This document shows positions 15,469 to 38,531 of a DNA stretch of 42,302 nucleotides, piece after piece; the first letter of the stretch is position 1; the number at the start of each line of letters is the position of its first letter. The stretch lies in IMG/VR virus record IMGVR_UViG_3300006201_000047, one strand, 5' to 3'. The notes below the pieces were generated by a model, which worked only from the letters and a program-made list of their open reading frames with translations, was not told the DNA's origin and did no database searches. The DNA comes from a virus. A program made the translations under genes and the position numbers.

Positions 15469-16467
15469 AGGATTATCCAGGATTTCCCTGCGTAATTTCT
15501 CCGCCGCTTTCCTTTTCGCCTGCTCGTCTTTATCCATCATAGAATGTCGATATACAGTTTTCATAACGTGGTCCGTTTTCCACCCGCCCATTTTTATTAT
15601 ATCGGCTTCTGGAATATTCATGGAGCTCATTTTAGAAGCAAAGTAGTGCCGCATCTTATGTAAAGAGAATTTAGGCAGGCCCATGGAGCGCTGGGCCTTA
15701 TATAAAAAACATGTGATACTGTTTGGGTGCCCATCATATACATACCCTTGCTCTATTATCTTCTTTGCCACATCTTCTGGAATAATAACTTCTCTAGTGC
15801 TTTCAGGCGTCTTGGTAATTTTAATAATCCAGTTCTTATTTTCATCCTGAACCATGTTTTTATTTATTTTGATAATATCTCCTTTTATGTCATTCAAAGA
15901 CAATGCACATATCTCAGACCTTCTTAGACCATAGCAGCCAAGAATGATTGGAATTTCAAACATGGTCCCGCTGGAGTAATCCAATATCTTTCTTACATCA
16001 TCGTCAGTCGGTATATATGGCTCTTTTTTAATTTTTTGTGGGAGAGTAGTAGTAAGTTTCAGGTTGGGGCAAAAAATACCTAGAACAGACGATATGAAGC
16101 CATGGCGGTTTTTTACGGTCTTAGGGCTAAGGCTTTTCGACATCTCATTTATTTCCGTTTGCACATCGAGAGCTGTAATGTCATGCACATTTTTTTCAAG
16201 GAAATAGGTTGATAAATTTTTTATGATGGTTTTATATCCCCGGACCGTACTGGGAGATAAGATATTGCGCCTTGATTCTATGTATTCTTCAGCGGCAGCC
16301 TGGAAGGTCATGCTCTTATATTTCTTCTGCATTTTGTCCAGCTCTTCCGCCATGGCCTGTATGGCTTCTTTTTGCGTAGGTTTTTTATCAAAAATAACAG
16401 AGTAGGCCTTTCCTTTGTACATTTTTCGGACCCGGTAGGAGCCGGATGGCAATTTTTCGATTTTCAT
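15454..16467 (-). CDS. int: Tyrosine recombinase / phage integrase (337 aa)
   Basis: N-terminal SAM-like domain (KLPSGSYRVRKMYKGKAY). The catalytic region contains GLRRSEICAL, LHKMRHYFAS and GGWKTDHVMKTVYRH (R..HxxR..Y). RBS AAGGAGGA precedes the ATG at 16467. Confidence 0.9.
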   Translation of the reverse strand: MKIEKLPSGSYRVRKMYKGKAYSVIFDKKPTQKEAIQAMAEELDKMQKKYKSMTFQAAAEEYIESRRNILSPSTVRGYKTIIKNLSTYFLEKNVHDITALDVQTEINEMSKSLSPKTVKNRHGFISSVLGIFCPNLKLTTTLPQKIKKEPYIPTDDDVRKILDYSSGTMFEIPIILGCYGLRRSEICALSLNDIKGDIIKINKNMVQDENKNWIIKITKTPESTREVIIPEDVAKKIIEQGYVYDGHPNSITCFLYKAQRSMGLPKFSLHKMRHYFASKMSSMNIPEADIIKMGGWKTDHVMKTVYRHSMMDKDEQAKRKAAEKLRREILDNPVTNL

Positions 16468-16548
16468 GATTATCCTCCTTAAAAATGAGTATAAAAAATA
16501 CAGCCTGTGAACCATACGCTATTTTCGTACATTTCACTTGCAAGCTGC

Positions 16549-22407: not shown

Positions 22408-22785
22408 ATGGAATATTTTTTAATAATTCCTGGCGTTCTCCCGAATCTTAACGATTACATAGCTGCAGAGCGCACAAATCGCCATAAAGGGGCGAAGATG
22501 AAAGCTGATAGCGGAAATATCGTTTCAGTGTCAATCAGACGGTGTTTGATGGGCGTTAGGATTGAGGCGCCGGTATTTATGGAATACACATGGATTGAGC
22601 CAAGTAGGCGGCGGGATAAGGATAATATCTCGTCATTTGGCCGAAAAGTAATCCAGGATGCACTTGTCCAGTGTGGAGTATTAAAAGATGATGGATGGAA
22701 ACATGTTGTCGGATTTTCCGACAGGTTCGAAGTGGATAAAGAAAATCCAAGGATAGAAATTTTGATAAAGGAGGTGGAATCTTGA
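22408..22785 (+). CDS. rusA: RusA-family Holliday junction resolvase (125 aa)
   Basis: PNLNDYIAAERTNRHKGAKMK...RRRDKDNISSFGRKVIQDALVQCGVLKDDGW matches the RusA pattern D.DN....K...D.L.....L.DD. Confidence 0.75.
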   Translation: MEYFLIIPGVLPNLNDYIAAERTNRHKGAKMKADSGNIVSVSIRRCLMGVRIEAPVFMEYTWIEPSRRRDKDNISSFGRKVIQDALVQCGVLKDDGWKHVVGFSDRFEVDKENPRIEILIKEVES

Positions 22786-22809
22786 AATTACGGATAGGAG
22801 GTGCAAAAA

Positions 22810-23604
22810 GTGCCGAACCGGATTATTAAGGAATCTATCTGTCGGAGTGATTCCGTAAATTCCCTTTCCTGGTTCGAAGAAGTTTTGTTTTACAGATTGA
22901 TTGTGGTATGTGATGATTATGGCCGGTTTGATGGAAGGCCTGCAGTAATAAGAGGCTCATGCTTCCCGTTAAAAGATGTTAGGCTGGAACAGATTGAGAA
23001 TGCTCTTAGTAAGTTGTCCACGGTTGGGATGGTCTGGAGATATGAAGTCGAGGATAGACCCTTCCTTCAATTGATAGCTTGGGAGCGGCACCAGCAAAGA
23101 CGTGCAAAAAACAGTAAATATCCAGCACCAGAAACCGAATGCAATCACATGATATCACATGATATCAAATGTCCCCGAGGAATCGAGGAATCGAGGAATC
23201 GAGGAATCGAGGAATCGAGAAACGAATGCGTGCGCGCGCGCGAGGCGGGAGAAGTGCGCCGTTTTGAGGAGTTTTTATCTGCATACCCAAAAGACTGCAA
23301 TCGTTTTTTGGCAGAACGAGAGTATGTTTCTTTGTTGTTGACTGGAAAAATAACAGAGGATGAGCTGGTTTTCTGTGCGGTAAATTATGCTGATTCTTGC
23401 AAGATTCTTGAAACACCAAAGAAATATATCAAAAACGCTGAGAATTTCTTGAGGGAATTTGTGTTTGAGGGATATCTTCCGGGAAATTACGAGAAGCCAG
23501 AAAAGAAAAAAACGAAAAATAAATTCACTGATTTTCACCAAAGGGCATATGACTTTGATAAGCTGGAAAGCCAGATTTTAAACAATAATCTGGGAGGTGG
23601 TTAA
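22810..23604 (+). CDS. Replisome organiser / DnaD-like replication initiation protein (alternative GTG start at 22801)
   Basis: N-terminus SLSWFEEVLFYRLIVVCDDYGRFDGRPAVIRGSCFP resembles the Phage_rep_org_N domain. It carries internal iterons. Confidence 0.7.
   Translation: MPNRIIKESICRSDSVNSLSWFEEVLFYRLIVVCDDYGRFDGRPAVIRGSCFPLKDVRLEQIENALSKLSTVGMVWRYEVEDRPFLQLIAWERHQQRRAKNSKYPAPETECNHMISHDIKCPRGIEESRNRGIEESRNECVRAREAGEVRRFEEFLSAYPKDCNRFLAEREYVSLLLTGKITEDELVFCAVNYADSCKILETPKKYIKNAENFLREFVFEGYLPGNYEKPEKKKTKNKFTDFHQRAYDFDKLESQILNNNLGGG
23177..23216 (+). repeat. Five tandem copies of the 8-mer GAGGAATC (candidate ori iterons) inside the organiser gene
   Basis: Direct reading. It encodes GIEESRNRGIEESRN and is followed by an alternating GCGTGCGCGCGCGCG tract (23228-23242). 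Confidence 0.85.
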
Positions 23605-24054
23605 ATGCGCAAAAGGTGCCGCAACTGCCTATGCTGGACATGTCTGTATTCCTGCATGTGCAGAAAATGCAGAGGAAGGATAAAGGAGTGCAATCAGTAC
23701 AGCGGATGTTGCCAGCTTAGTATTTTTGAGACGAAACCGCAGATGCAGACGGTCACACCTAGATACTCTTGGCAGTATTATGGAATCACCAAAGAGCGTT
23801 ATAGGCAGCTTACAGAGTACATACAGTCCGGAAGATATGACTCTCTCGCTTTGCAGGCGGCCCATGAAGCCAACGAAATGATTGCAGAATACATTCTTCT
23901 TTCTGTGACACAAAATAAGTCCTATGACGCTCTCAGGATGAAATGGGAATTGAAAGAAATGGAGCGGATTCCATACTGCCGGACTGATTTCTATGGGATT
24001 AGGAGATATTTCTTTAGTATATTTAACGAGAAAATGAAGGAGATAGGAAAATGA
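23605..24054 (+). CDS. Candidate late-gene activator (RinA/ArpU-like C-terminus) with a Cys-rich N-terminus (149 aa)
   Basis: Located just upstream of the first late promoter copy and the terminase block. The C-terminal IPYCRTDFYGIRRYFFSIF resembles the sxrTfYRiKrkal ending of that family, from memory. Confidence 0.4.
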   Translation: MRKRCRNCLCWTCLYSCMCRKCRGRIKECNQYSGCCQLSIFETKPQMQTVTPRYSWQYYGITKERYRQLTEYIQSGRYDSLALQAAHEANEMIAEYILLSVTQNKSYDALRMKWELKEMERIPYCRTDFYGIRRYFFSIFNEKMKEIGK

Positions 24055-24263
24055 TGATTAGCGGAATACAGATGGGAAACGTTGTATGGAAATATCTTGT
24101 GGATAACGATATAGATGCGACAAAATTTTATAAAAATGCATACAATTTTTTACAAAACCATGTAGAAAAGATAAAAAAGGGAGAGGGACATGGAACAAGG
24201 TATTGTTACCGAGAAGAGAATATTATAACAATATTGGAAGAGTGGAAAAAACAACAATTTTAA
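24051..24263 (+). CDS. Hypothetical protein (70 aa)
   Basis: Overlapping start (ATGA). No motif recognised. Confidence 0.55.
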   Translation: MMISGIQMGNVVWKYLVDNDIDATKFYKNAYNFLQNHVEKIKKGEGHGTRYCYREENIITILEEWKKQQF

Positions 24264-24264
24264 A

Positions 24265-24298
24265 TTGGTACAACTCCCCCTAAAATCTCCTGTACAAT
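24265..24298 (+). promoter_or_regulatory. Copy of the phage-specific promoter motif (TTGGTACAAC-N17-gTACAAT), head of the packaging/late operon
   Basis: Matches the other five copies in sequence and spacing. Confidence 0.6.
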
Positions 24299-24341
24299 AG
24301 AATTAGGGGATTTAGGGGGATTGTGGAAAGGTGGGAAAAAT

Positions 24342-24587
24342 ATGAAATGGATAAAAGAAAGAGAGCCTTGGAGGGCTGAGCTTATTCATGACTGTGAATT
24401 AGAATGCGATGGGAAATTTCTGGTATCTGCAAGTAAAGAGAAGCCTGTTCTTGGTACAGTAACCCATTATGGCTATAAAAAGATTGGGAGAAATAATGTT
24501 CATATGTGCAGTTTTTCTCCCGATATTGCTCCAGATAAGCGTTGGGCATTCAGCCACAGGTGGTTGAAAAGAATCAAAAACCAGTAA
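24342..24587 (+). CDS. Hypothetical protein (81 aa)
   Basis: Preceded by the conserved leader GGGATTGTGGAAAGGTGGGA. Confidence 0.6.
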   Translation: MKWIKEREPWRAELIHDCELECDGKFLVSASKEKPVLGTVTHYGYKKIGRNNVHMCSFSPDIAPDKRWAFSHRWLKRIKNQ

Positions 24588-24612
24588 AGGGATTGTGGAA
24601 AGGTAGGAGAAT

Positions 24613-25011
24613 ATGGAGAGATTAACAAGAAGACATGCGGACGGGGAGTTATTTCGTCCAGTTTATGTCATTGATGGAAGAAAAGGATATGTGAACGAAA
24701 CGGATATAATTGATAAACTAGCAGAATATGAGGACTTAGAAGAACAAAACAGACTGCTGAAACTGCCTTGTGCGGTGGGGGATACGGTGTACCACTTATG
24801 CACACTTAAAAGCGGTGAAACAGAAATGATTGAAATGAAAGTTGGATGTGTTGAACCTTATGGCGCAATCAGAAATCACAAGGGAGTATGCGAAATCTGG
24901 AACGTATATGCAGAAACGGATTGCACAAAAGCATATTTCAGGTTCTCTGATTTTAACAAAACCGTTTTCCTCACCAGAGAAGAAGCCGAAGCCGCATTGA
25001 AAGAATTATGA
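24613..25011 (+). CDS. Hypothetical protein (132 aa)
   Basis: Preceded by a near-identical leader, GGGATTGTGGAAAGGTAGGA. Confidence 0.65.
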   Translation: MERLTRRHADGELFRPVYVIDGRKGYVNETDIIDKLAEYEDLEEQNRLLKLPCAVGDTVYHLCTLKSGETEMIEMKVGCVEPYGAIRNHKGVCEIWNVYAETDCTKAYFRFSDFNKTVFLTREEAEAALKEL

Positions 25012-25043
25012 ATATCGGATATGTCGGGAAAGGATAGGAAAAT

Positions 25044-25178
25044 ATGTTTATACCATATAGATGTGAAGATTGTATTTACGGAATATATAACCATGAAGAT
25101 AGCTGTTATGAAAATGGTTGTTCCGCATCAGATGATGATGAATGTGAAGAATTATTTCAGGAAGATGATAGGAAATGA
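25044..25178 (+). CDS. Small acidic Cys-rich ORF (44 aa)
   Basis: Hand translation: MFIPYRCEDCIYGIYNHEDSCYENGCSASDDDECEELFQEDDRK. Its stop overlaps the next ATG. Confidence 0.45.
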   Translation: MFIPYRCEDCIYGIYNHEDSCYENGCSASDDDECEELFQEDDRK

Positions 25179-25438
25179 ACATCCGAGCAACCATAAACAA
25201 ACTCCAAAAAGCGCTGATACAGCGTGGCTATATCTATAAAATCAACACATACCAGTTCTACAGCGAACAGCAGAACCGCATGATTACCGGCTACCGCATT
25301 ACGCAGAAACAGCCGTACCGTAAGAAAAACGGGGAAATGTCTAAGAAAGATGTGGAGCTGCTGAATAGCTGTTCTCAGGTGGAAGTGTTGAAGTGGTTTG
25401 CGGAGAAGTGGAAAGAGGTAAAAGAAAGTAGTGGTTAA
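25175..25438 (+). CDS. Hypothetical protein (87 aa)
   Basis: Directly abuts the terminase ATG. No motif recognised. Confidence 0.6.
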   Translation: MNIRATINKLQKALIQRGYIYKINTYQFYSEQQNRMITGYRITQKQPYRKKNGEMSKKDVELLNSCSQVEVLKWFAEKWKEVKESSG

Positions 25439-27064
25439 ATGGAAAAACTAACGCCAAAGCAAAAGGCATTTGCAGACAATTATATAAAAAATGGTGGAAA
25501 TGCCGAAAAAGCGGCGTTAGACGCAGGGTATTCAAAAAATTACGCAAAAGCACAATCATATAAAATGTTGGACAATGTCGGAATTTCCACCTATATAGCG
25601 GAAAAACAGAAAGAAATCGAAAAACAGAACGGTTACGACATTATGACCTTGACCGAGATTCAGGAGCGGCGTTCAAGAATCGGTAAAGGATTGGAAGTGG
25701 ATTCTTTCGGATTCGCCGCCGACTTTTCCAGTCAGTTAAAGGCAATGAGCGACCTTGAAAAGATTTTGCTTATTAAACAGGAGCAGGAAGAAAAGCAGAG
25801 AGCGGCAGAAGAAGCGTTGCGAAATAAGACTTATCACATGGACTTGGACAATATCCCGGACGCTTTTCACGCCGCTATCCGTGCGATAAGGAACCGTGTG
25901 TATCTGGAATACATATTCAAGGGCGGGCGTGGTTCTACGAAGTCCTCCACTGTCGGAATGGTGATTGTGGAGCTCCTCAAAAATCACCATGACATACACG
26001 CTCTTGTCTGCCGTAAGGTTGCGAACACTATCAAGGATTCTGTCTATAACAAGATTAAGTGGGCGATAGGAAAGCAGGAATTTGACGAGGAATTTACTTC
26101 CACAAAATCACCATATGAAATCACGCTGAAAGCCACGGGGCAGAAGATATATTTCAGAGGTGCAGACGACCCGGACAAGATTAAATCTATCAACCCGGAG
26201 TTTGGCTATATCGGTATCCTGTGGTACGAGGAATTAGACCAGTTCGCCGGAGATTCCGAAGTACGAAAAATAGAACAGTCTGCTATCCGTGGCGGCGAGT
26301 TGGCGTGGATATTCAAATCATTTAACCCGCCAAAGACCGCCAACAACTGGGCGAATGAGTATGTGCAGGAGGTTGGAGAAAATACTCTTGTCCACAGCTC
26401 CACATACAAAGACGTGCCTAAAGAGTGGCTAGGGCAACCATTTATTGATAAGGCGGAGCATTTGAAAGAAATCAATCCAGAAGCCTACGAGCATGAGTAC
26501 GGCGGCGTGGCGAATGGTAACGGCGGTATGGTGTTTGAATATCTTGAATTTCGGACGATTACGGACGAAGAAATCAGCCACATGGACAAAATTTTTCAGG
26601 GGGCTGACTGGGGATATTTCCCTGACCCTTACGCATTTATCAGAGCTTATTACAATGCTTCAAAGGAAACAATCTATCTGATTGATGAAAACTATGTCAA
26701 TAAGCAGCAGAACGCAGTAACGGCGCAATGGATAAAGGATAAAGGCTATACAGATTATGCTGTCACTTGCGACAGTGCAGAACCTAAATCCGTGGTGGAT
26801 TATCGGGACATGGGGATATCTGCAAGGGGAGCAATAAAAGGTCCCGGTTCCGTTGAATATGGTATGAAGTGGTTGCAGAGTAGACATATTGTTATTGATA
26901 TGAAAAGGACGCCGAACGCCGGAAAAGAGTTAAAAGAATATGAGTATGAAAGGGATAAGGACGGAGAAGTTATTTCCGGCTATCCTGACGCAAATAATCA
27001 CGCAATAGACGCTTTGCGGTATGCGTTTGAGCAATTCTATAACAGGAGAGGAAATCACGCATAA
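25439..27064 (+). CDS. Terminase: small-subunit (Terminase_2-like) N-terminal domain fused to a PBSX-type large subunit (541 aa)
   Basis: The N-terminus KLTPKQKAFADNYIKNGGNAEKAALDAGYSKNYAKAQSYKML is the TerS HTH signature. Walker A KGGRGSTKS begins the TerL ATPase, and the C-terminal part is nuclease-like. Confidence 0.85.
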   Translation: MEKLTPKQKAFADNYIKNGGNAEKAALDAGYSKNYAKAQSYKMLDNVGISTYIAEKQKEIEKQNGYDIMTLTEIQERRSRIGKGLEVDSFGFAADFSSQLKAMSDLEKILLIKQEQEEKQRAAEEALRNKTYHMDLDNIPDAFHAAIRAIRNRVYLEYIFKGGRGSTKSSTVGMVIVELLKNHHDIHALVCRKVANTIKDSVYNKIKWAIGKQEFDEEFTSTKSPYEITLKATGQKIYFRGADDPDKIKSINPEFGYIGILWYEELDQFAGDSEVRKIEQSAIRGGELAWIFKSFNPPKTANNWANEYVQEVGENTLVHSSTYKDVPKEWLGQPFIDKAEHLKEINPEAYEHEYGGVANGNGGMVFEYLEFRTITDEEISHMDKIFQGADWGYFPDPYAFIRAYYNASKETIYLIDENYVNKQQNAVTAQWIKDKGYTDYAVTCDSAEPKSVVDYRDMGISARGAIKGPGSVEYGMKWLQSRHIVIDMKRTPNAGKELKEYEYERDKDGEVISGYPDANNHAIDALRYAFEQFYNRRGNHA

Positions 27065-31093: not shown

Positions 31094-31411
31094 ATGAGTA
31101 TAATAAGCGAACAGGTAAGAGAACTGCGTTATAAAGCTGATATTTACAACGCTGTCGGGAGCGCATGGGAATTAAACCGTGCGGAGGCAAAGATATTACA
31201 GAGATTGCTTAGAAAAGCCGCTGACACCATAGAGGCATTATCCAAAAAGTTGGCGACAAACGGCGGCTGGATTCCATGCAGTGAGCCGCCAAAGCATGAC
31301 AAAGAAGTTTTGATATTCAACGGGAAATCATACTCTGTGGGATATTATGATGGGAAAACATGGGTAAATGCAATACACCCCGTGGAATGGCAGGAGATAC
31401 AGCATGAATAA
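31094..31411 (+). CDS. Coiled-coil plus DUF551-like protein (105 aa)
   Basis: The C-terminus reads NGGWIPCSEPPKHDKEVLIFNGK...DGKTW. Confidence 0.5.
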   Translation: MSIISEQVRELRYKADIYNAVGSAWELNRAEAKILQRLLRKAADTIEALSKKLATNGGWIPCSEPPKHDKEVLIFNGKSYSVGYYDGKTWVNAIHPVEWQEIQHE

Positions 31412-31775
31412 TAGATGGGTAGAATATAACAGCAATCCTTTAAAAAGACGTGTCGGCGACTGCGCCATTCGTGCGTGCTGCAAGGCTACAAACCGCACAT
31501 GGAATGAAGTCTTTGACGACCTTGTGCAGATTGCGTACCGTCAAAAGGATGTTTTGTCAGCAAATAAAGTATGGGGTGAATACCTGGCAGATAACGGCTA
31601 TGTTCGCTATGAGCCGGATTACCCTATGGACGTTTACAAATTTTGCTGCAACTTTCCGCATGGTACATACGTTCTTGGGCTTGACGGTCATGTAGTGACG
31701 GTGGTGGACGGGCGGTTCTATGATACTTGGGATTCGTCCGGGAAGAGTGTGATTTATTTTTGGGAGAGGGGATAG
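31404..31775 (+). CDS. Putative papain-like Cys/His enzyme (123 aa)
   Basis: NPLKRRVGDCAIRACCKA (a GDC nucleophile-like motif) and later LDGHVVTVVDGRFYDTWDS (a GH motif). This is inferred from a motif pattern seen in phage proteins. Confidence 0.4.
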   Translation: MNNRWVEYNSNPLKRRVGDCAIRACCKATNRTWNEVFDDLVQIAYRQKDVLSANKVWGEYLADNGYVRYEPDYPMDVYKFCCNFPHGTYVLGLDGHVVTVVDGRFYDTWDSSGKSVIYFWERG

Positions 31776-31778
31776 GCA

Positions 31779-32102
31779 TTGACAAGGAAAGAAGCTATAG
31801 GAGAATTTCAAGTACAGATAAGCACTCTTGAAAGCATGATTGCGTATAATAATGACTTTGAACCCAAAAGTGATAATTCAAGGCTGATAGAGAGAATGGA
31901 AGCGGCGAAAGTGGCTATATCTGCATTGGAAGAATTGGAACGCTGGCACACCGACCGTATCAATGAGAAAATCAAGAATCCGTTTGCATGGACTTCTACC
32001 TCTATTTGCCACAACTGCGACCATAAAGACGAATACATAGAGGAATTGGAAACAGAGATTCAAGAGTTGAAACAGAAATATGAGATTGCAACCACTCCCT
32101 AA
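31779..32102 (+). CDS. Hypothetical coiled-coil protein (107 aa, TTG start)
   Basis: An ORF with a CHNCDH motif and a C-terminal coiled coil. Confidence 0.5.
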   Translation: MTRKEAIGEFQVQISTLESMIAYNNDFEPKSDNSRLIERMEAAKVAISALEELERWHTDRINEKIKNPFAWTSTSICHNCDHKDEYIEELETEIQELKQKYEIATTP

Positions 32103-32142
32103 AATTGCTATAATGAGGGAAATACAGAGCGGAGGTTTGGGA

Positions 32143-32292
32143 ATGGAAATGCCAGTAATAATAGGCTCATTGGTGATACTTGGTGAAATATCAATTTTGG
32201 CTTTTATGCTGATGAAAGAGTGGTTTCTTCCGTTTGTCGGTCAATGTGTTTGTGATTTTTGTGGAAAGGTTAAGGGAAGATATGGAAAATAG
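32143..32292 (+). CDS. Small membrane protein (49 aa)
   Basis: MEMPVIIGSLVILGEISILAFMLM is TM-like, followed by a CVCDFC motif. Confidence 0.45.
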   Translation: MEMPVIIGSLVILGEISILAFMLMKEWFLPFVGQCVCDFCGKVKGRYGK

Positions 32293-32548
32293 GGATAATG
32301 TGAAGGAAAAAGAAAACGGCGCAACCGATGTATTGGGCGCACTGGTTAAGCAGCTTAAAACAATGTGGATAGTGATTGTTCTTTTAATTATTCTGCTTGT
32401 CGGAACAAATATGGCTTGGTTGTATGTGTTCCAGTCCTATGACTATGTATCACAGGACGGCGAGGGATATAATTATTACAACAAAGAGATTGAAGGTGAT
32501 GTGCATAATGGGACAGAAGATAAGAAGCAAGAAGAAGGGCAGAACTAG
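32282..32548 (+). CDS. Single-pass membrane protein (88 aa)
   Basis: TM helix MWIVIVLLIILLVGTNMAWLYVF followed by an acidic, Tyr-rich tail. Confidence 0.5.
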   Translation: MENRDNVKEKENGATDVLGALVKQLKTMWIVIVLLIILLVGTNMAWLYVFQSYDYVSQDGEGYNYYNKEIEGDVHNGTEDKKQEEGQN

Positions 32549-32580
32549 GGGAACTAAGAAGAAAAGAAAGTAGCGGTGGC

Positions 32581-32853
32581 ATGAGGAAGAAAAAAGAAAA
32601 GGAAGTTGAAGGATTTGTCAAATGGGAGTTGGAACTTTTTAAAAATGAGTGCAATTTCACGCCGGACGAATCCATGTTCTTTGATTTGAGGAATGAGGGC
32701 GATGGAATGAGTTTTGAAGAAATCGCCGGTCAAATGGGATATTGCATGACTAAAATCAATAAACTTTCTGAATCCGTCACCAAAAAGATTATAAAGGTAT
32801 TGCCGCTTAAAGAGGCATTTTTCAAGAAATACCGCGATAAATACGGAGAATAA
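32581..32853 (+). CDS. Sigma-70 region-4-like HTH protein (90 aa)
   Basis: MSFEEIAGQMGYCMTKINKLSESVTKKIIKVL matches the LSyeEIAe.lg.s..tVk.rl.ra.kkl pattern. Confidence 0.55.
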   Translation: MRKKKEKEVEGFVKWELELFKNECNFTPDESMFFDLRNEGDGMSFEEIAGQMGYCMTKINKLSESVTKKIIKVLPLKEAFFKKYRDKYGE

Positions 32854-32954
32854 TTGAATAAAAAACGCAACAAAAACGAGGGTTTTCCGAGTATGGGAAA
32901 CTCTCTATTTTTATGCAAAAATTTACCCATAGAAAGAAATCGGAGGGCATTCAG

Positions 32955-33476
32955 ATGGCATATTCAAATCAATACCAACCATATCAGTACCAATATGCGC
33001 CACAGGTGCAGCCGCCTATGGACAGGCTGGCGCAGTTGCAGGCGCAGCAGTATCAGCCTATGCAGCAACCAGCACAATCAAATCAATCATTGATTTATGT
33101 GCAAGGAGAGGCGGCGGCTAAAAGCTGGATTGTAGGAGCCGGGCAGTCCGTATTGCTGATGGACAGTGAGAATCCAGTGTTTTATATCAAATCTGCAGAT
33201 GCTTCTGGGATTCCGTTGCCGCTTCGGGTATTTGATTATACAGAACGCAATCAGAGTATGCCGCAGAACGCACCACAATCCGTAAATCCGGCTCAAATAG
33301 ATTTAGATAGACAATATGTCACAAGAGCGGAATATGACGACTTGCAGGGAAAATATGCGGAGATTTTGGACAGACTGAATAACTTTCCTGTCAATATTTC
33401 AACTGGCGATGATACCAAGAGAACAACGGCAGGAACAAGCAAGCCAAGAAATAAGGGAGGGAATGCTAATGAGTAG
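32955..33476 (+). CDS. Gln/Pro/Tyr-rich N-terminus plus conserved-looking core protein (173 aa)
   Basis: MAYSNQYQPYQYQYAPQVQPP...QQYQPMQQPAQSNQ, followed by VQGEAAAKSWIVGAGQSVLLMDSENPVFYIKSADASGIP. Confidence 0.6.
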   Translation: MAYSNQYQPYQYQYAPQVQPPMDRLAQLQAQQYQPMQQPAQSNQSLIYVQGEAAAKSWIVGAGQSVLLMDSENPVFYIKSADASGIPLPLRVFDYTERNQSMPQNAPQSVNPAQIDLDRQYVTRAEYDDLQGKYAEILDRLNNFPVNISTGDDTKRTTAGTSKPRNKGGNANE

Positions 33477-33681
33477 TCCGGTTTTCGGAGCAATGGGCGG
33501 TCGGGGCGGCGGAAATATGATGCAGCAGTTCCAACGCTTTATGCAGGAAATGAAAGGGAAGAACCCACAGGAGGAAATAAATAAGCTGCTCCAATCTGGA
33601 AAAGTAAGTCAGCAGCAACTTAATCAAGTACAACAGCAAGCCCAGCAGATGCAGGGGATGTTTAAAGGATTTTTTAAGTAG
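33469..33681 (+). CDS. Gln/Met-rich small protein (70 aa)
   Basis: MSSPVFGAMGGRGGGNMMQQFQRFMQEMKGKNPQEE...QQQLNQVQQQAQQMQGMF. RBS AAGGGAGGG is present. Confidence 0.55.
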   Translation: MSSPVFGAMGGRGGGNMMQQFQRFMQEMKGKNPQEEINKLLQSGKVSQQQLNQVQQQAQQMQGMFKGFFK

Positions 33682-33730
33682 ATACATAACTTTGCGCAAA
33701 GTTTGTAAATAAATTTCAAGGAGTAAAAAC

Positions 33731-34528
33731 ATGATGGAATCAGGAGTACCAATTACGATGAACGTAGAGCCTAGTGGCTGTAATAACAATAACGGCGGCT
33801 TCGGCGGAGATTGGGGCGCATGGATTATCCTTTTCCTTATCTTTGGTATGTTCGGCTGGGGCGGTTTCGGCGGCTTTGGTGGAGGATTCGGCGGAAATTC
33901 CGCAGGATTACAGGGAGCTTTAACCCGCGCGGATATCAATGAAGGATTTGCCCTTAATAACTTGCAGAGCGGTATCAATGCCATTCAGCAGGGCATCTGT
34001 GACAGCACCTATGCACTCACAAACGCCGTAAACAGCGGCTTCAACAGCACGCAGATGGGAATGATGCAGGGATTTAACGGTGTTGAGCGTGGATTTTGCA
34101 ACCTGTCCAGTCAGATTTCCGATTGTTGCTGCCAGACGCAGCGCGCGATTGACGGCGTGAACTACAACATGGCGAAGAACACATGTGATTTACAAAATAC
34201 CATGAATGTAAACACACGCGACATTATCGACAGCCAGAACGCAGGCACAAGGGCAATCCTCGACTATCTGTGCCAGGAGAAGATTTCTGACTTACAGGCA
34301 GAGAACCAGACGCTGAAACTGGCAGCATCCCAGGCGAACCAGAACGCAACACTTATGGCAGCCATGGACGCTAACACGGCGCAGATTATCCGCAGAACCG
34401 GCAACGACTGCCCTATTCCGGCATATGTCGTACAGCCCCCGGCGCAGGTATCTTTCCCGACAAATTGTTGCGGACAGTTCAACGGCGGCGGTTGGGGCGG
34501 TAACTGCAATCAGTGTGGCAACTGCTAA
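33731..34528 (+). CDS. Gly/Cys/Asn-rich membrane-anchored protein (265 aa), YjcZ-like N-terminal segment
   Basis: GGFGGDWGAWIILFLIFGMFGWGGFGGFGGGFGG near the N-terminus, a CCC triplet, and the C-terminus NCCGQFNGGGWGGNCNQCGNC. Confidence 0.65.
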   Translation: MMESGVPITMNVEPSGCNNNNGGFGGDWGAWIILFLIFGMFGWGGFGGFGGGFGGNSAGLQGALTRADINEGFALNNLQSGINAIQQGICDSTYALTNAVNSGFNSTQMGMMQGFNGVERGFCNLSSQISDCCCQTQRAIDGVNYNMAKNTCDLQNTMNVNTRDIIDSQNAGTRAILDYLCQEKISDLQAENQTLKLAASQANQNATLMAAMDANTAQIIRRTGNDCPIPAYVVQPPAQVSFPTNCCGQFNGGGWGGNCNQCGNC

Positions 34529-34599
34529 AAACTGAAAAATGAGTATCTTTTCCGTGAAACATCGGAAATGTTCGGCATGAGCCGTTATTACAACGTGGG

Positions 34600-34626
34600 A
34601 GGGCAGAACATTGATTCTGTCCTTTT
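34600..34626 (+). terminator. Hairpin plus T4 after the Gly/Cys-rich gene
   Basis: AGGGCAG / CTGTCCT (one G-U pair) with a 10-nt loop, followed by TTTT. Confidence 0.45.
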
Positions 34627-34645
34627 GCGATTAACTGGACATTGA

Positions 34646-34665
34646 CAACTGAATATAGCTGATAG
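34646..34665. repeat. Left inverted repeat flanking the methyltransferase-like cassette
   Basis: CAACTGAATATAGCTGATAG. Its reverse complement recurs at 35343-35361 with one 1-nt indel. Confidence 0.85.
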
Positions 34666-34666
34666 A

Positions 34667-34700
34667 ATGGTACAAATCACACCTTGAAATATGAGATAAT
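34667..34700 (+). promoter_or_regulatory. Copy of the phage-specific promoter motif (ATGGTACAAA-N17-aGATAAT)
   Basis: Matches the other copies in spacing. It is the most divergent copy. Confidence 0.5.
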
Positions 34701-34734
34701 ATGTGTATGAAAGCAAAGAGAGGATAGGTGTGGA

Positions 34735-35331
34735 ATGAGAGTTTTAGTTGCTTGTGAGGAAAGTCAAGCTGTAACAATAGAATTGCGGAGATTGGGGCAT
34801 GAAGCGTATTCGTGCGACATTGAGGAATGTTCCGGCGGACACCCGGAATGGCATTTACAGCAGGACGTGACACAGCTTTTGAAAATGAAATGGGATATGA
34901 TTATAGCATTCCCACCATGTACATATCTTTCCAATGCAGGAGCGAAGCATTTATGGAAAGACCATGTTTTGAATGAAGAACGGTACATGAAAGGACTTGA
35001 AGCAAAGAAATTCTTTATGCAGTTTCTCAATGCGGATTGTCCGAGGATTGCGGTAGAAAATCCCGTATCAAGCCGGATATTCGGTATGCCGCCGCACACG
35101 CAGGAAATACAGCCTTACCAATTTGGACACCCGGTACAGAAAAAGACACGCTTATGGCTGCGTGGATTGCCGAAGTTGATACCGACAAATGAGGTTGATT
35201 ATAAATGCAACTGTCACGAAGCAGGAACATGGTTTATGAAAGGCGGCAAAGATAGGCAGAAAAACAGAGCAAAGACATTTCCGGGAGTTGCTAAGGCAAT
35301 GGCGGAACAATGGGGAGGAAAAACAGAATAA
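34735..35331 (+). CDS. C5-cytosine-methyltransferase-like protein lacking a canonical motif I (198 aa)
   Basis: IAFPPCTYLS looks like motif IV (PC) and IAVENPVSS like motif VI (ENV). The N-terminus MRVLVACEESQ replaces FxGxG. The protein is far shorter than a complete Dcm-type enzyme. Confidence 0.55.
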   Translation: MRVLVACEESQAVTIELRRLGHEAYSCDIEECSGGHPEWHLQQDVTQLLKMKWDMIIAFPPCTYLSNAGAKHLWKDHVLNEERYMKGLEAKKFFMQFLNADCPRIAVENPVSSRIFGMPPHTQEIQPYQFGHPVQKKTRLWLRGLPKLIPTNEVDYKCNCHEAGTWFMKGGKDRQKNRAKTFPGVAKAMAEQWGGKTE

Positions 35332-35342
35332 GACCATTAAAA

Positions 35343-35361
35343 CTATCAGCTATATCAGTTG
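35343..35361. repeat. Right inverted repeat flanking the methyltransferase-like cassette (overlaps an AT-rich terminator-like hairpin plus T-run)
   Basis: CTATCAGCTATATCAGTTG is the reverse complement of 34646-34665 minus one A. Confidence 0.85.
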
Positions 35362-35388
35362 GTAGTTTTTTATTTGGAGGAAAATAAC

Positions 35389-35811
35389 ATGGCAGAATAT
35401 ACTGGAATTGCCTTGCAGACCGTAGAAGCAGGGCAGAATGTTGTATTAACCGAAACCCCCGTGTGCGGTTCAAACTGCATACAGCACAGGGAGGGGAGCG
35501 GCATTGTAAAATTGAGAGGACTTACCAATAACTGCAAGGCAAGATTTCTTGTCAGCTTTTCGGGAAATATCCAGATTCCGACAGGCGGCACGGTTGAAGC
35601 TATCTCCGTAGCGATTGCGGTTGACGGAGAGCCTTTGCAGTCCACCAGAATGATTGTAACCCCGTCGGCGGTTGAGAACTTCTTTAATGTGTCCGCACAG
35701 GCTTACATAGACGTGCCGAGAGGGTGCTGTGCAACCGTGGCGGTCGAAAACACGTCCACACAGGCGATTCAGGTGCAGAACGCTAACCTGATTGCAGTAA
35801 GGGAGGGTTGA
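35389..35811 (+). CDS. BclA-C-terminal-domain-like (C1q/TNF-type jelly-roll) protein (140 aa)
   Basis: The pattern ...GQNVVLTE...GSGIVKL...ARFLVSFSGNIQIP.GGTVEAISVAIAVDGEPL...NANLIAV resembles BclA/BclB CTD proteins, from memory. RBS GGAGGA is present. Confidence 0.45.
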   Translation: MAEYTGIALQTVEAGQNVVLTETPVCGSNCIQHREGSGIVKLRGLTNNCKARFLVSFSGNIQIPTGGTVEAISVAIAVDGEPLQSTRMIVTPSAVENFFNVSAQAYIDVPRGCCATVAVENTSTQAIQVQNANLIAVREG

Positions 35812-35813
35812 TC

Positions 35814-36353
35814 ATGCATAAATTAAGAGAAAACGCAGAAAAAGAGTTAAAAGCGATTGAGGAAAAAGGCTTATCCCAGTCCAACATTGACAATGCCTAT
35901 AAGCTTGTGGAGATTGTGAAGGGCGTGGACAAAATCAACATGATGGAAGAGGGCGGCGGTTATTCCAGAGATGGGTACAGTCGTGATATGGAGGATTACA
36001 GCCGGGATAGTGGTTATGGTGGTGGTAACAGCCGTGACCGTGGGTATTCCCGTGATAACTACGACAACGGCAATTCATACCGCAGAGGACGCAACCAGCG
36101 CACCGGGGAATATATGCACCGTCCGAACCATTCCCGCCTTTCTGGAGATGATACCGACATGGACGAGTATCGTAGCCGGAAAATGGAATACTCCAACAGC
36201 CGGGATGATGGTGCGAAGAACAGAATGCTTGACGCTTTGGAAGATTTTATGTCTGGCGTGCATGGCATGATGAAACAGATGTTCAAGGATGCGGACTGTC
36301 GGGAAGAAAGGGAGATTATCCAGAACTGGGCAAGGAAAATTGCAGAGATGTAA
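35814..36353 (+). CDS. Protein with a central (Y/N)SRD-repeat low-complexity region (179 aa)
   Basis: GGGYSRDGYSRDMEDYSRDSGYGGGNSRDRGYSRDNYDNGNSYRRGRN is flanked by helical N- and C-terminal domains. Confidence 0.6.
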   Translation: MHKLRENAEKELKAIEEKGLSQSNIDNAYKLVEIVKGVDKINMMEEGGGYSRDGYSRDMEDYSRDSGYGGGNSRDRGYSRDNYDNGNSYRRGRNQRTGEYMHRPNHSRLSGDDTDMDEYRSRKMEYSNSRDDGAKNRMLDALEDFMSGVHGMMKQMFKDADCREEREIIQNWARKIAEM

Positions 36354-36363
36354 TATTGCAGAG

Positions 36364-36390
36364 GGGCGGCAGTGATGCCGCTCTTTTGCT
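36364..36390 (+). terminator. Intrinsic terminator
   Basis: GGGGCGGCA-GTGA-TGCCGCTC forms an 8-bp stem with one G-U pair, followed by TTTTGCTTT. Confidence 0.7.
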
Positions 36391-36395
36391 TTAAG

Positions 36396-36429
36396 TTGGT
36401 ACAAATAATTTATTCATTCGTGGTATGAT
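36396..36429 (+). promoter_or_regulatory. Copy of the phage-specific promoter motif (TTGGTACAAA-N17-gTATGAT)
   Basis: Matches the other copies. It lies immediately after a terminator. Confidence 0.55.
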
Positions 36430-36478
36430 AATTTCAGTAGGGGAGTTTTCCCCTGTCGGAAACCGCAAAAGGGAGGAT

Positions 36479-36790
36479 ATGGGAATGGTAAAGTTACAGT
36501 CAAAAGATGAACCGATAACAGTTTTTTATTTTAGAAATATGCAGGATTGCGAAGCATTTATGCATGTGTTTAAAGACCACTGGTGCAATGTTGAATGGAA
36601 TGAAGTGATAGAAAGACCAGATTTTCCGGAAATGAGCAGGTATCAGAGAGAGGCTTTGAACAAAGACCCGAAAGAGCGCGCAGAAAGCAATTTGTCATGG
36701 GGATTCAACCTTGATAGGAAGTTTAACAGGGGATTAAACGACAACCAAAACGCTTTTGTTTCTGCTATGATTTGGAGGATGACCGTTTAA
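36479..36790 (+). CDS. Hypothetical protein (103 aa; alternative ATG at 36485)
   Basis: RBS GGGAGG is present. No motif recognised. Confidence 0.6.
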   Translation: MGMVKLQSKDEPITVFYFRNMQDCEAFMHVFKDHWCNVEWNEVIERPDFPEMSRYQREALNKDPKERAESNLSWGFNLDRKFNRGLNDNQNAFVSAMIWRMTV

Positions 36791-36791
36791 T

Positions 36792-36825
36792 TTGGTACAA
36801 CTACCCCACCAAACTGCGGTACAAT
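36792..36825 (+). promoter_or_regulatory. Copy of the phage-specific promoter motif (TTGGTACAAC-N17-gTACAAT)
   Basis: Matches the copy at 24265 in the 10-mer and the -10. Confidence 0.6.
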
Positions 36826-36833
36826 ATAAGCAT

Positions 36834-36944
36834 AAAAGGCATTAGGAAATGGGCGCGACATAAGGTAAGACCGATATGTAGGCACTGAATATAATCAAAG
36901 ACAGGGACAAATGGGAAGCGTTTTCTGCGGTACTAATGCTTTTT
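36834..36944 (+). promoter_or_regulatory. Long structured 5' leader: a 12-bp closing stem around ~87 nt
   Basis: AAAAGGCATTAG (36834-36845) pairs with CTAATGCTTTTT (36933-36944), including one G-U pair. It lies between the promoter and the first ORF of the operon. Confidence 0.4.
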
Positions 36945-36972
36945 ATAAATGGAAATCAGGAGGGATAGGAAA

Positions 36973-37158
36973 ATGGAATCGGTAAGAGGTATATTTTGTT
37001 TGAACAGTAAATGCAAAAATTATTATGAAGATAATTGCATGAAAATTTTTGAAGATAATACAGTACATATTTCGGAAGATGGAAGATGTGAAGATTTTGA
37101 AAAGGGAAAATACATAGGTTACAGTGACAGTCCTGAACCGATAGGAGAACAGCCATGA
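36973..37158 (+). CDS. Small Cys-rich protein (61 aa)
   Basis: CLNSKCKNYYEDNC...DGRCEDF. RBS AGGAGGG is present. Confidence 0.55.
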   Translation: MESVRGIFCLNSKCKNYYEDNCMKIFEDNTVHISEDGRCEDFEKGKYIGYSDSPEPIGEQP

Positions 37159-37316
37159 CACAATACCAATGGGTACTCTGCCCCATCTGCGGAGGAAAAA
37201 CCAGGACGAAAATCAGACCGGACACGGAGGCGAAAAATCTCATTGTGTTCTGCCCGAAGTGCAAGAGGGAAACGGTTATAGATATTAAAGAGGGCAAGAC
37301 AGAAAATATAAAATAA
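37155..37316 (+). CDS. Cys-rich KTR-type zinc-ribbon protein (53 aa; below the track cutoff)
   Basis: Hand translation: MTQYQWVLCPICGGKTRTKIRPDTEAKNLIVFCPKCKRETVIDIKEGKTENIK. The CPxCGxKTR...FCPKCK pattern matches PF14205. Confidence 0.6.
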   Translation: MTQYQWVLCPICGGKTRTKIRPDTEAKNLIVFCPKCKRETVIDIKEGKTENIK

Positions 37317-37340
37317 ATAAAATTTGTGGAGGGAATTTGC

Positions 37341-38099
37341 ATGAACAAAACAAAGATTGACTGGTGTGATTCAACATGGAATCCGGTTACTGGGTGTAAT
37401 CATGGGTGTGAATACTGCTATGCAAGAGGTATAGCGCACAGATTCGGATTTCACGCAAGCGAACCGGATATTAACGAAAGAGTATTACTTGAATGTCCGG
37501 TAAGCGCAGGAAAGAAAGTTCCATATCCATTTGACTTTCATCCGACATTCCATAAATACCGCTTGAATGATTATATCGGAAAACAAGGAAGGAACATTTT
37601 TGTCTGCTCTATGGCTGATTTGTTCGGGAAGTGGGTGCCAGACAGTTGGATTGAGGAAGTGTTTAGGTCTTGCGAAAAAGCACCACATCACAATTATTTG
37701 TTTCTGACAAAGAATCAGCAAAGATATATTGAACTGTCAGAAAAAGGATTGTTGCCAAATAAACATTGGTATGGTTACTCTGTAACAAAGCAATCTGATT
37801 TATGGGAATTTCATCATGCAGACGATTGTGCAGTGAAAAATCTGTTTGTTAGCATAGAACCTATACTAGAACCAATAAGCCCCGGATTTTGTTCGCATTG
37901 TCCGGCTGATTGGGTAATAATCGGAGCTGAAACTGGACGGAGAAAAGACAAGGTTGTTCCAAAGCGAGAATGGGTTGAAAGAATTGTGATGGAATGTGAA
38001 TATTCCGATATTCCGGTATTTATGAAATCAAGCCTTGCAGATATATGGGGCGAACCACTCATACAGGAATTTCCAAAAGAATTAATGAAAATTAAATAG
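37341..38099 (+). CDS. Phage Gp37/Gp68 family (DUF5131) protein with a CX3CX2C motif (252 aa)
   Basis: MNKTKIDWCDSTWNPVTGCNHGCEYCYARG is the characteristic N-terminus of PF07505. Confidence 0.75.
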   Translation: MNKTKIDWCDSTWNPVTGCNHGCEYCYARGIAHRFGFHASEPDINERVLLECPVSAGKKVPYPFDFHPTFHKYRLNDYIGKQGRNIFVCSMADLFGKWVPDSWIEEVFRSCEKAPHHNYLFLTKNQQRYIELSEKGLLPNKHWYGYSVTKQSDLWEFHHADDCAVKNLFVSIEPILEPISPGFCSHCPADWVIIGAETGRRKDKVVPKREWVERIVMECEYSDIPVFMKSSLADIWGEPLIQEFPKELMKIK

Positions 38100-38124
38100 T
38101 TTAGTGTCAGTAACAAAGTTTCAG

Positions 38125-38168
38125 TGCCAGTAGATACGAGAAATCGTGTTTGCTGGCATTTTTATTTT
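38125..38168 (+). terminator. Intrinsic terminator after the Gp37/Gp68 gene
   Basis: Outer stem TGCCAG / CTGGCA with inner hairpin ACGA-GAAA-TCGT, followed by TTTTTATTTT. Confidence 0.7.
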
Positions 38169-38214
38169 GACATTATCTAATATTTGATAGATTTCCTAAC
38201 CCTCCTAAGAGGGT

Positions 38215-38265
38215 GCATCCGTCAGTAATGGTGCTGTAAAGGCGGTTCGATTCCGCACAGGTGCA
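38215..38265 (+). ncRNA. Truncated tRNA-like element (acceptor stem plus T-arm, no complete D or anticodon arms)
   Basis: GCATCCG pairs with CAGGTGC (6 of 7 positions). The T-arm is GGCGG-TTCGATT-CCGCA, with T at position 8. Only ~18 nt lie where the D and anticodon arms should be. Confidence 0.4.
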
Positions 38266-38367
38266 TTTGCGCTTGTGGTTATGCTTTCTGCTTGCAGGTG
38301 GTCTATGGCGCAGGTGCAACATTTCCCTTATCCTAGCGTCTGCCCCTTGTGGGTGGGCGCACTCCCT

Positions 38368-38446
38368 TGAAGCGTAGCCTAACGGATAGAGCGACCATTG
38401 CTTTAACAGGCAAGGGAAGATGTTGGTTCGATTCCAGCCGCTTCAA
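38368..38446 (+). tRNA. tRNA-like gene (79 nt) with an irregular anticodon arm; anticodon unresolved
   Basis: Perfect 7-bp acceptor TGAAGCG/CGCTTCA, a D-arm with GG, and T-arm GTTGG-TTCGATT-CCAGC. The anticodon region only folds with a bulge and an 8-nt loop, TTTAACAG. Confidence 0.6.
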
Positions 38447-38531
38447 TTTTGGACAAGCCAAGTCCTACAAAATGGCAGACCGTTGGTGGACGGTTACACA
38501 CCTATAAATAACCTAATAACGGAGGGAATAC

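Follow-up and report, generated by a model that had tools for sequence, protein, structure and literature searches.

HK97 gp15, the product of a moron, is a membrane protein that is encoded among the tail genes and blocks DNA entry, and prophages of Firmicutes carry conversion genes (toxin or immune-evasion genes) between the lysin gene and attR. We analyzed a cassette of five genes (A to E, positions 32,955 to 36,353) in the IMG/VR virus record IMGVR_UViG_3300006201_000047, whose whole stretch of 42,302 nucleotides is called the window below. Like morons and lysogenic-conversion cassettes, this cassette is built as a unit of terminator, putative promoter, genes and terminator, is found among late genes or at prophage ends, and is exchanged between phage backbones. 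Unlike these, it comprises five co-conserved genes where one or two are usual, lacks a known effector domain and is retained as well by a phage that has been observed solely in the lytic cycle. Its kind, an autonomous phage accessory cassette, is known, whereas its content is undescribed. We interpret it, with a probability of about 0.4, as a mobile accessory operon of the moron or lysogenic-conversion type carried by siphophages of gut and rumen Clostridia, whose products would form a membrane-associated assembly with a barrier or envelope function.

What can be stated firmly is that A to E constitute a widespread, co-conserved and portable operon encoding a protein of predicted BclA_C fold (D), a Cys-rich single-helix protein (C) and three fast-evolving low-complexity proteins (A, B and E). 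The order A-B-C-D-E is held in nearly all of about 110 related loci. Among 80 viral contigs anchored on D, C lies immediately upstream of D in 79, and family-level searches recovered the order HTH-A-B-C-D-E(-F), where HTH (helix-turn-helix) and F are companion genes described below, in practically all of the 95 loci that extend far enough (B stands between A and C in 90 of them). A reciprocal scan anchored on E yielded 16 new loci; D lies directly upstream of E in 13, mostly together with HTH, A, B and C. Since practically all related loci of sufficient length show this order, the five genes are no chance neighborhood, and the co-occurrence check that had been proposed from the sequence alone revealed strong co-conservation. 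One locus (L108, 3691-5507) departs from strict co-occurrence: members of the HTH and E families are separated by 1.1 kb in which A, B, C and D are not detectable. In a protein collection clustered at 90%, we counted 3,830 relatives of D and at least 7,990 of C, none of which carries a Pfam domain or an informative name in that collection. Conservation is uneven across the cassette. Between the window and the group of locus L007, D is 84% identical and C about 50%, A and E only 15-22%. D is the most conserved protein of the cassette, and the relatives of A and E preserve composition rather than sequence.

All five open reading frames (ORFs) lie on the plus strand where an earlier reading of the window (hereafter the sequence-only reading) had placed them (Table 1), and the PHROG families that they match are all annotated as of unknown function. 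That reading had described five neighboring genes of extreme composition. The peptide strings it quoted are present: A begins with MAYSNQYQPYQYQYAPQVQPP, C holds GGFGGDWGAWIILFLIFGMFGWGGFGGFGGGFGG, a CCC triplet and the C-terminus NCCGQFNGGGWGGNCNQCGNC, and E carries four YSRD and one NSRD repeats in GYSRDGYSRDMEDYSRDSGYGGGNSRDRGYSRD, with a further NSRDD later. Relative to 19 other proteins of the same phage, the composition is extreme for A (Q 13.3%, 3.5 times the background; P 8.1%, 2.6 times), B (Q 22.9%, 6.1 times; M 11.4%, 4.7 times), C (Cys 5.3%, 4.5 times; N 12.1%; G 14.3%) and E (R 11%, 2.8 times; D 10.5%; M 7.7%). Low complexity, measured as 30-residue windows with an entropy below 3.0 bits, was found in 16 of 144 windows of A, 8 of 41 of B, 30 of 236 of C and 31 of 152 of E, relative to a background of 3.3%; D is not of low complexity (0 of 111). 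The genes are indeed neighbors, but a sixth gene of the interval, a DNA methyltransferase gene (34735-35331), had been overlooked. A and B overlap by 8 nt, which suggests translational coupling. E most likely starts at ATG 35814 rather than at TTG 35808, since a ribosome-binding site (RBS; GGGAGGG) is present and homologues begin with MHKLREN; the alternative start would overlap the stop codon of D, so that the two genes either abut or overlap. Signal peptides are absent from all five proteins.

These compositions could point to a condensate or matrix. The Tyr/Gln-rich, prion-like A and the Arg/Tyr/Asp-rich E would then co-condense through Tyr-Arg contacts on membrane-bound C and D, and would form either a compartment in the infected cell or, after lysis, a protective matrix around virions that is cross-linked by cysteine oxidation. 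The sticker compositions of A and E are complementary, low-entropy segments occur in A, B, C and E, and the low-complexity parts evolve fast (15-22% identity) with their composition kept while D stays at or above 80%; C presents an invariant CCC and a Cys/Gly tail, and D a near-invariant CC. We nevertheless consider this scenario improbable, as it is drawn purely from composition and has no precedent in tailed phages of Firmicutes.

The sequence-only reading had likened the pattern of the 140-aa protein D to the C-terminal (C1q/TNF-like) domain of BclA, and structure prediction supports this likeness. An AlphaFold2 (AF2) model based on a 113-sequence alignment was all-beta (predicted local distance difference test, pLDDT, 91; predicted template modeling score, pTM, 0.84), with a jelly roll spanning residues 2-138 that forms a compact ten-strand beta-sandwich of TNF-like topology according to AF2 and Foldseek. 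The single-sequence model was poor (pLDDT 60), although its Foldseek matches already pointed to BclA and TNF. The top 20 Foldseek matches of D in the PDB are F-BclA, ExsFA, BxpB, BclA and the TNF-family ligand EDA (E 7e-7 to 1.5e-5; TM 0.64-0.76; probability 1.0). The best match is 9h38, the F-BclA tip domain of the Bacillus thuringiensis F-ENA (E 7e-7, TM 0.71); other matches are ExsFA (7r1m, 7r5i, 9h3d), BxpB (8d02) and BclA (1wck, 2z5w, 2r6q, 3tyj), with TM values of 0.67-0.71 for 7r1m, 8d02 and 1wck. At the sequence level, the window protein matched nothing in Pfam at E <= 1, and two D profiles found no match among PDB sequences. When 66 diverse relatives of D (each with E <= 1e-25 to the D profile) were compared to Pfam, 6 matched BclA_C (PF18573; best E 2.3e-10), a link that is transitive only. 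The relation of D to BclA_C is thus based on fold comparison and transitive Pfam matches, since the sequence alone shows none.

An exhaustive profile search grouped the relatives of D into 808 clusters at 50% identity. Proteins of the best 150 of these clusters measure 80-196 aa, mostly 130-160 aa, and are nearly all bare domains; none of these 150 clusters is long enough for a collagen stalk. Among the predicted viral structures of BFVD, the best matches of D are stand-alone proteins of 130-142 aa from uncultured gut phages, two of which are named 'BclA protein', and this comparison shows the BclA_C fold to be widespread among proteins of phages and giant viruses. D resembles BclA_C and ExsFA/BxpB of the Bacillus cereus group in its predicted TNF/C1q-like jelly roll (TM 0.67-0.72 to 9h38, 7r1m, 8d02, 9h3d and 1wck); it is about equal in size to ExsFA/BxpB and, like ExsFA, BxpB and BclA, it has no signal peptide. 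However, its sequence identity to BclA, ExsFA and BxpB is only 10-16%, and it lacks both the collagen-like GXX stalk and the N-terminal exosporium-targeting region of BclA, so that it does not qualify as a collagen-like exosporium glycoprotein of the BclA type. Unlike exosporium proteins, D is encoded by phages, including phages of hosts regarded as non-sporulating, and no known exosporium protein corresponds to its partners A, B, C or E. On the basis of the model, D belongs to the BclA_C/TNF-like superfamily as a divergent member that lacks a stalk and whose architecture is nearest to that of ExsFA/BxpB, and by analogy with this fold family it is presumably a homotrimer.

The other four proteins have no match in Pfam, NCBIfam, PADLOC or PDB sequences. 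Among about 80 diverse relatives of A, B, C and E no Pfam match was found at E <= 0.01, NCBIfam gave no match for these four proteins, sequence searches of the PDB gave no significant match for A, C and E, and no protein among A-E, HTH, F and P (a further companion) matched PADLOC-DB 2.0 below E = 0.01. The literature on phage-encoded BclA/exosporium proteins and on TNF-like decoration proteins likewise contained no description of the gene set that we could find, in line with the earlier remark that no described system could be named. By these searches, the cassette encodes no recognizable enzyme. A GerQ-like architecture that we considered for A (a Q-rich N-terminus and a small beta domain) was dropped, as no Pfam match was found in 21 relatives of A.

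C opens with a short acidic tail. This is followed by a single hydrophobic segment (KD19 = 1.75 at residues 32-50), whose helix has GGFGG runs on both sides, by a long region rich in N and Q that contains the invariant CCC triplet, and by a C-terminal tail rich in Cys and Gly. Further conserved features are an Asp that invariably precedes the helix, Gly positions that are invariant behind it, a GxCD motif and the Cys/Gly tail in the form of CNQCGNC or GCGCNTGCGC, and the C-terminal region of 200 aa is conserved overall. As noted in the sequence-only reading, the Gly-rich run flanking a short hydrophobic helix resembles the YjcZ family of small sporulation proteins. C is not a member of this family: it is 265 aa long with a large conserved C-terminal region, and no NCBIfam or Pfam match was obtained at E <= 0.1-1 for the window protein or at E <= 0.01 for 20 diverse relatives.

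We further analyzed the control region of the cassette, which is insulated by an intrinsic terminator upstream and closed by another one downstream of E (Table 1). The leader motif TTTATGCAAAAAT has a single exact match in the window, and the RBS and start codon of A follow 32 nt after it. A hairpin with a T-run and a leader of the form TRTGnNAAAAT (R = A or G) head the cassette in 69 of 77 loci; the motif lies within 400 nt upstream of A and has few matches elsewhere. Across 29 distinct leaders the hairpin stems differ completely in sequence, and all are stable (median dG -13 kcal/mol, median z -3.6) and end at a T-run. Because the stems vary in sequence yet remain stable and end at a T-run, they represent a conserved intrinsic terminator. 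TRTG is the extended -10 motif of Gram-positive bacteria, and TRTG-n-NAAAAT shows canonical spacing, conservation of the key A2 and T6, and no conserved -35. These properties suggest that the leader is an extended -10 promoter of the host sigma-A type, insulated from upstream transcription. As judged by these sequence features, the cassette presents the terminator and promoter-like leader of its own, independent of the flanking operon, that would be expected of a moron.

This arrangement speaks against the earlier proposal that the five genes are expressed from late promoters. The motif TGGTACAA occurs six times in the window (11946, 24266, 31041, 34668, 36397 and 36793), where 0.86 occurrences are expected; all copies are intergenic and on the plus strand, each with TAnAAT about 21 nt downstream, and they look like a phage-specific promoter class. 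Within the A-E interval only the inserted methyltransferase gene has a copy upstream, and A-C lie behind their own terminator and extended -10 motif; we rejected TGGTACAA as the promoter of the cassette, as it is not found upstream of A. The proposal is thus unsupported for A-C, while D and E might be reached from the copy at 34668 by read-through of the weak hairpin at 35339-35369. Four of the six sites fall within the 31-37-kb accessory island that surrounds the cassette.

The cassette was found in four genomic contexts. It lies (i) between the genes for MuF and the scaffold, as seen in the window, in loci L097-L099 and in Dulem virus 35, whose complete genome measures 45 kb; (ii) directly downstream of an integrase gene and attP in phages of ~55-60 kb, of which 36 loci have a tyrosine integrase and 9 a large serine recombinase; (iii) after the lysis genes and a terminator, and before the early genes, in Butyrivibrio phage Ceridwen, with the order P-A-B-C-D-[HNH]-E at 22484-26124; and (iv) after the holin and amidase genes of a prophage on the 861-kb replicon of Vescimonas fastidiosa, at its junction with the host DNA. 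Dulem virus 35 and the window share 48% identity for the large terminase, 62% for the major capsid protein (MCP) and 48% for D. In loci L007 and L092, D is 80-84% identical to that of the window, and no shared structural genes were detected in the 10-kb flanks. Since the identities of D and of the MCP are discordant in these comparisons, the alignments indicate that D is decoupled from the phage backbone. Variable position and a phylogeny decoupled from the backbone, both typical of morons, are thus found together, and the five genes travel en bloc among unrelated backbones and from one genome position to another.

The spacers of the cassette are insertion hot spots with different cargo in each lineage. 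The methyltransferase unit of the window is an insertion into the spacer between C and D (34529-35388) and does not belong to the cassette; of 80 related viral loci, L001 alone, which is near-identical to the window, shares the methyltransferase. Other loci carry in this spacer an ORF of 84 aa (L007, 9734-9988), 105 aa (L095, 9615-9932) or 181 aa (L097, 11048-11593), and Ceridwen carries an HNH gene between D and E (L100, 24928-25722). Such tolerance of insertions fits a modular operon. Taken together, the four contexts, the decoupling from the backbone and the variable inserts indicate a behavior of the moron or lysogenic-conversion type rather than that of a fixed structural gene.

The same data bear on a virion-associated role, which the sequence-only reading had raised as decoration or head-fiber proteins. 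D trimers could decorate the head or form fibers anchored through the other proteins, or A-E could be ejection or pilot proteins; in the latter variant an encapsidated set would be delivered with the DNA alongside the MuF protein, and the helix of C would help to form an entry channel. In the window, Dulem virus 35 and L097 the cassette shares the strand of the MuF and scaffold/capsid genes between which it lies, which is consistent with this idea, as are the absence of signal peptides, which fits cytoplasmic assembly, the retention of the cassette by a lytic phage, and the frequency of TNF-like knobs in phage fibers (8ke9 and 9k09 are among the PDB matches of D, and many collagen and fiber proteins are among its BFVD matches). 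However, neither fixed synteny nor co-variation with the MCP was observed: at least 45 loci have the cassette beside integrase and attP, and in Ceridwen and Vescimonas it follows the lysis genes. It also has a leader of its own with terminator and putative promoter, and the relatives of D in the best 150 clusters are nearly all bare domains without stalk or anchor. A capsid-binding protein should co-vary with the capsid, so that the discordance counts against this role: D is 80-84% identical where the flanks share no structural genes, yet 48% identical where the capsid protein is 62% identical. A virion-associated role is therefore unlikely in our view.

The sequence-only reading had also suggested a phage adapted to a spore-forming host. 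Under such a scenario proteins of the coat or exosporium kind, namely a trimer resembling BclA/ExsFA, a Cys-rich protein open to cross-linking and proteins rich in Tyr and Gln, would be made by a prophage and deposited on the forespore in the mother-cell cytoplasm. They would thereby alter spore properties or let the phage be carried with the spore. Bacillus exosporium proteins (F-BclA, ExsFA, BxpB and BclA) make up almost all of the best structural matches of D, and relatives of D match BclA_C; the missing signal peptides match coat and exosporium proteins, a small GerE-type HTH gene lies upstream, and the hosts are Lachnospiraceae and other Clostridia. Moreover, in a 385-kb metagenome contig of Clostridia (L093, 7693-8100, compared with L092) a related cassette-bearing prophage of ~60 kb with a large serine recombinase lies inside sigG, directly downstream of spoIIGA-sigE. 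The gene is split after about residue 100, with the crossover CCCATGG within the YAVPM codons. Because this prophage resides in the sigG of a host with spoIIGA-sigE-sigG, at least some hosts are sporulators. The L093 prophage is comparable to skin (in sigK) and SPbeta (in spsM) in that it splits a sporulation gene, here a sigma-factor gene. It differs from them in that sigG acts in the forespore whereas theirs are mother-cell genes, and it is a relative of the window phage, which has a tyrosine integrase. A single literature search found no sigG-intervening prophage.

Several observations argue against a spore-specific function. The hosts Butyrivibrio fibrisolvens and Vescimonas fastidiosa are not known to sporulate, and the presence of the cassette in Ceridwen and in the Vescimonas prophage weakens the spore reading. 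The leader is sigma-A-like, and by eye no sigma-E, -K, -F or -G promoter element is conserved in it (CATA is found in some lineages and is not conserved). The BclA_C fold, which is widespread in phages and giant viruses, is no marker of spores, and no relation of C to YjcZ was detected. By splitting sigG, a prophage would prevent sporulation rather than decorate spores, and in L093 the cassette is set apart from the sigG fragment by a terminator; we considered and rejected the possibility that the cassette of L093 is read from the forespore sigG promoter, since the sigG fragment ends in a stop codon that is followed by the leader terminator. Finally, the gene at 1786, previously taken as resembling a spore photoproduct lyase (SPL) gene, is no true member of that family: it encodes a radical SAM protein of the PA0069/Rv2578c type, a type that also occurs in non-sporulating bacteria, its scores are 46-48 bits relative to cut-offs of 360-430, and no SPL model matched at E <= 0.01. 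Remodeling of the spore surface therefore appears quite unlikely as the function of the cassette.

Our results are better accommodated by the mobile accessory operon, whose function would be neither spore-specific nor that of a fixed virion part. With its own putative promoter of the sigma-A type, the cassette would be switched on early in infection or from the prophage, outside of the late operon. C would span the membrane once and act as an anchor, its long domain being helical and bearing cysteines; the D trimer (BclA_C/TNF-like) might dock on C or else on a conserved host component. Overlapping or abutting genes would ensure that A and B, as well as D and E, are produced in fixed ratios, and the fast-evolving Q/Y- and R/Y/D-rich segments may act as sticky, multivalent linkers. 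In infected or lysogenic cells, A to E together would give rise to a protein layer associated with the membrane. As to its purpose, precedent leads us to guess at a non-enzymatic barrier or envelope function that aids the phage, such as the exclusion of superinfecting phages.

Several points weigh against this interpretation. The promoter is inferred from sequence only, and the flanks of the C helix are almost uncharged, which leaves its topology ambiguous. The absence of signal peptides, as in BclA/ExsFA and in phage fibers, fits an action on virions or spores after lysis, and in the 44-45-kb phage lineage the cassette always lies in the head-gene block on the same strand, which fits a virion role. 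Exclusion systems usually comprise one or two genes, not five, and no defense family of PADLOC was matched. Lysogenic conversion is also not the whole story, since the cassette is retained by a lytic-only phage: Ceridwen was isolated on Butyrivibrio fibrisolvens and has been seen only in the lytic cycle (PMC7372960).

A bolder possibility, to which we attach little likelihood, is that the cassette is a phage kit for an exosporium-like or occlusion-like protein layer, a viral functional analogue of the spore coat. A membrane-anchored, Cys-rich scaffold of C would be capped by D trimers and thickened by condensate-forming A, B and E. Assembly would take place in the cytoplasm of an anaerobe, which is reducing; once lysis brings the layer into contact with oxygen, it would cross-link and coat virions or the remnants of cells. 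The layer would aid the survival of the phage outside of the gut and, in sporulating hosts, would be laid onto spores.

The genes that accompany the cassette vary between lineages. P, located upstream of A, presents an invariant Cys32, His108 and Asp114/119 and is possibly a papain-like peptidase, although Pfam, NCBIfam and the PDB gave no match for it. Homologues of P lie directly upstream of A in Ceridwen (39% identity), Vescimonas and Dulem virus 35; P accompanies the cassette in some lineages but does not belong to its core. HTH is found upstream of A in 58 of 95 loci, and elsewhere an integrase gene is inserted between the two. Members of its family match Pfam GerE (11 members, best E 9e-8) and Sigma70_r4. 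In the window HTH immediately precedes the cassette, of which it is a candidate regulator. In three loci (L040, 5932-6408; L054, 5984-6427; L059, 4610-5008) HTH lies beside the integrase gene and is fused to an excisionase domain of the Tn916 type (E 3.5e-26); this fusion and the adjacency to the integrase in some lineages point to HTH as a possible component of the integration module instead of the cassette. F is a 107-aa HExxH protein of the DUF6782/SprT/M78 type, present in 74 of 95 loci and absent from the window. HTH and F (a small metallopeptidase) were considered as core parts, but both are missing in some lineages despite being frequent, and we treated them as accessory. A gene after E with the motif MDELMxTxxxxN is common to Ceridwen (L100, 26121-26447) and the Vescimonas prophage (L101, 14760-15152), where it occupies the place taken by F in other lineages.

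Scans with PHROG, Pfam and NCBIfam identified the window phage as a temperate siphophage of ~42 kb (Table 1). Its closest cellular copies are prophages of mouse-gut Lachnospiraceae (Lachnospiraceae bacterium 1XD21-87, whose D is 99% identical, and metagenome-assembled genomes of Acetatifactor and Hungatella). The five genes sit within an accessory island of 7.4 kb (31094-38450), with the MuF gene on one side and the scaffold gene on the other. The island also codes for a Cys_rich_KTR zinc-ribbon protein (37155-37316, E 5e-22) and for a small protein (32234-32548) that bears a hydrophobic helix (MWIVIVLLIILLVGTNMAWLYVF). A tRNA at 38368-38446 (Rfam, 37 bits), whose anticodon was not assignable by ARAGORN, is directly followed by a GP20-b RNA motif (RF03003, 41.6 bits; 38451-38515) just 5' of the scaffold gene, and a T-arm-like stretch, GGTTCGATTCC, near 38245-38260 was called by neither Rfam nor ARAGORN. 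The gene at 37326-38099 matches DUF5131 and TIGR04471 (pair A, E 2e-32) and resembles a 'radical SAM mobile pair' protein. The gene at 1786-2841 matches, besides the PA0069/Rv2578c-type models, weakly TIGR04470 (pair B of the same 'radical SAM mobile pair'). These two pair-like genes are distant on the genome map, the latter lying among the tail genes.

Table 1. Positions of the cassette, its control elements and companions, and other phage genes in the window.
Feature	Position	Strand	Description	Match
A	32955..33476	+	173 aa; Q/P/Y-rich disordered N-terminus, small beta domain, coiled coil, basic S/T/K tail	phrog_21718, E 7e-46
B	33469..33681	+	70 aa; Q/M-rich, basic, isoelectric point 10.3	phrog_22984, E 3e-32
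C	33731..34528	+	265 aa	phrog_16490, E 1e-97
D	35389..35811	+	140 aa; predicted stand-alone BclA_C/TNF/C1q-like jelly roll	phrog_20016, E 6e-74
E	35814..36353	+	about 179 aa; helical N- and C-terminal parts flank R/Y/D/G/S-rich repeats	phrog_28802, E 1e-81
Upstream intrinsic terminator	32878..32905	+	12 pairs and T-run; upstream of cassette	
Leader motif TTTATGCAAAAAT	32910..32922	+	just after terminator; read as TRTG-n-NAAAAT	
Downstream intrinsic terminator	36358..36389	+	14 pairs, 8 G-C; downstream of E, closes the unit	
P	31368..31775	+	135 aa	phrog_3754, E 6e-35
HTH	32581..32853	+	90 aa; GerE/LuxR- or sigma-70 region-4-like	phrog_1190/phrog_36, weak
Methyltransferase cargo	34668..35369	+	TGGTACAA 34668-34675, gene 34735-35331, hairpin and T-run 35339-35369	phrog_757, E 9e-57
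Tail genes	from 213			
Tape measure	at 3386			
Endolysin	at 12635			
Tyrosine integrase	15454-16515	-		
Replication genes	18-25 kb			
Large terminase	at 25439			
Portal	at 27064			
MuF-type minor head proteins	at 28730 and 29616			
Scaffold	at 38532			
Major capsid	at 39162			
Adaptor	at 40152			

Our results indicate that a cassette that is very common in phages of gut and rumen Clostridia (at least 7,990 clusters at 90% for C and 808 clusters at 50% for D) is wholly unannotated, four of its five proteins having no detectable relative of known function. This portable unit with a recognizable control region combines a predicted trimer of the spore-surface type, a Cys-rich putative membrane protein, and prion-like and Arg/Tyr-rich proteins. 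The availability of a cultured phage (Ceridwen) and of a cultured lysogen candidate (Lachnospiraceae bacterium 1XD21-87) makes the question experimentally tractable. Finding the role of the cassette would annotate thousands of phage genes at once, and it could bring to light a new mechanism of host-envelope modification, competitor exclusion or self-protection in phages of anaerobes.

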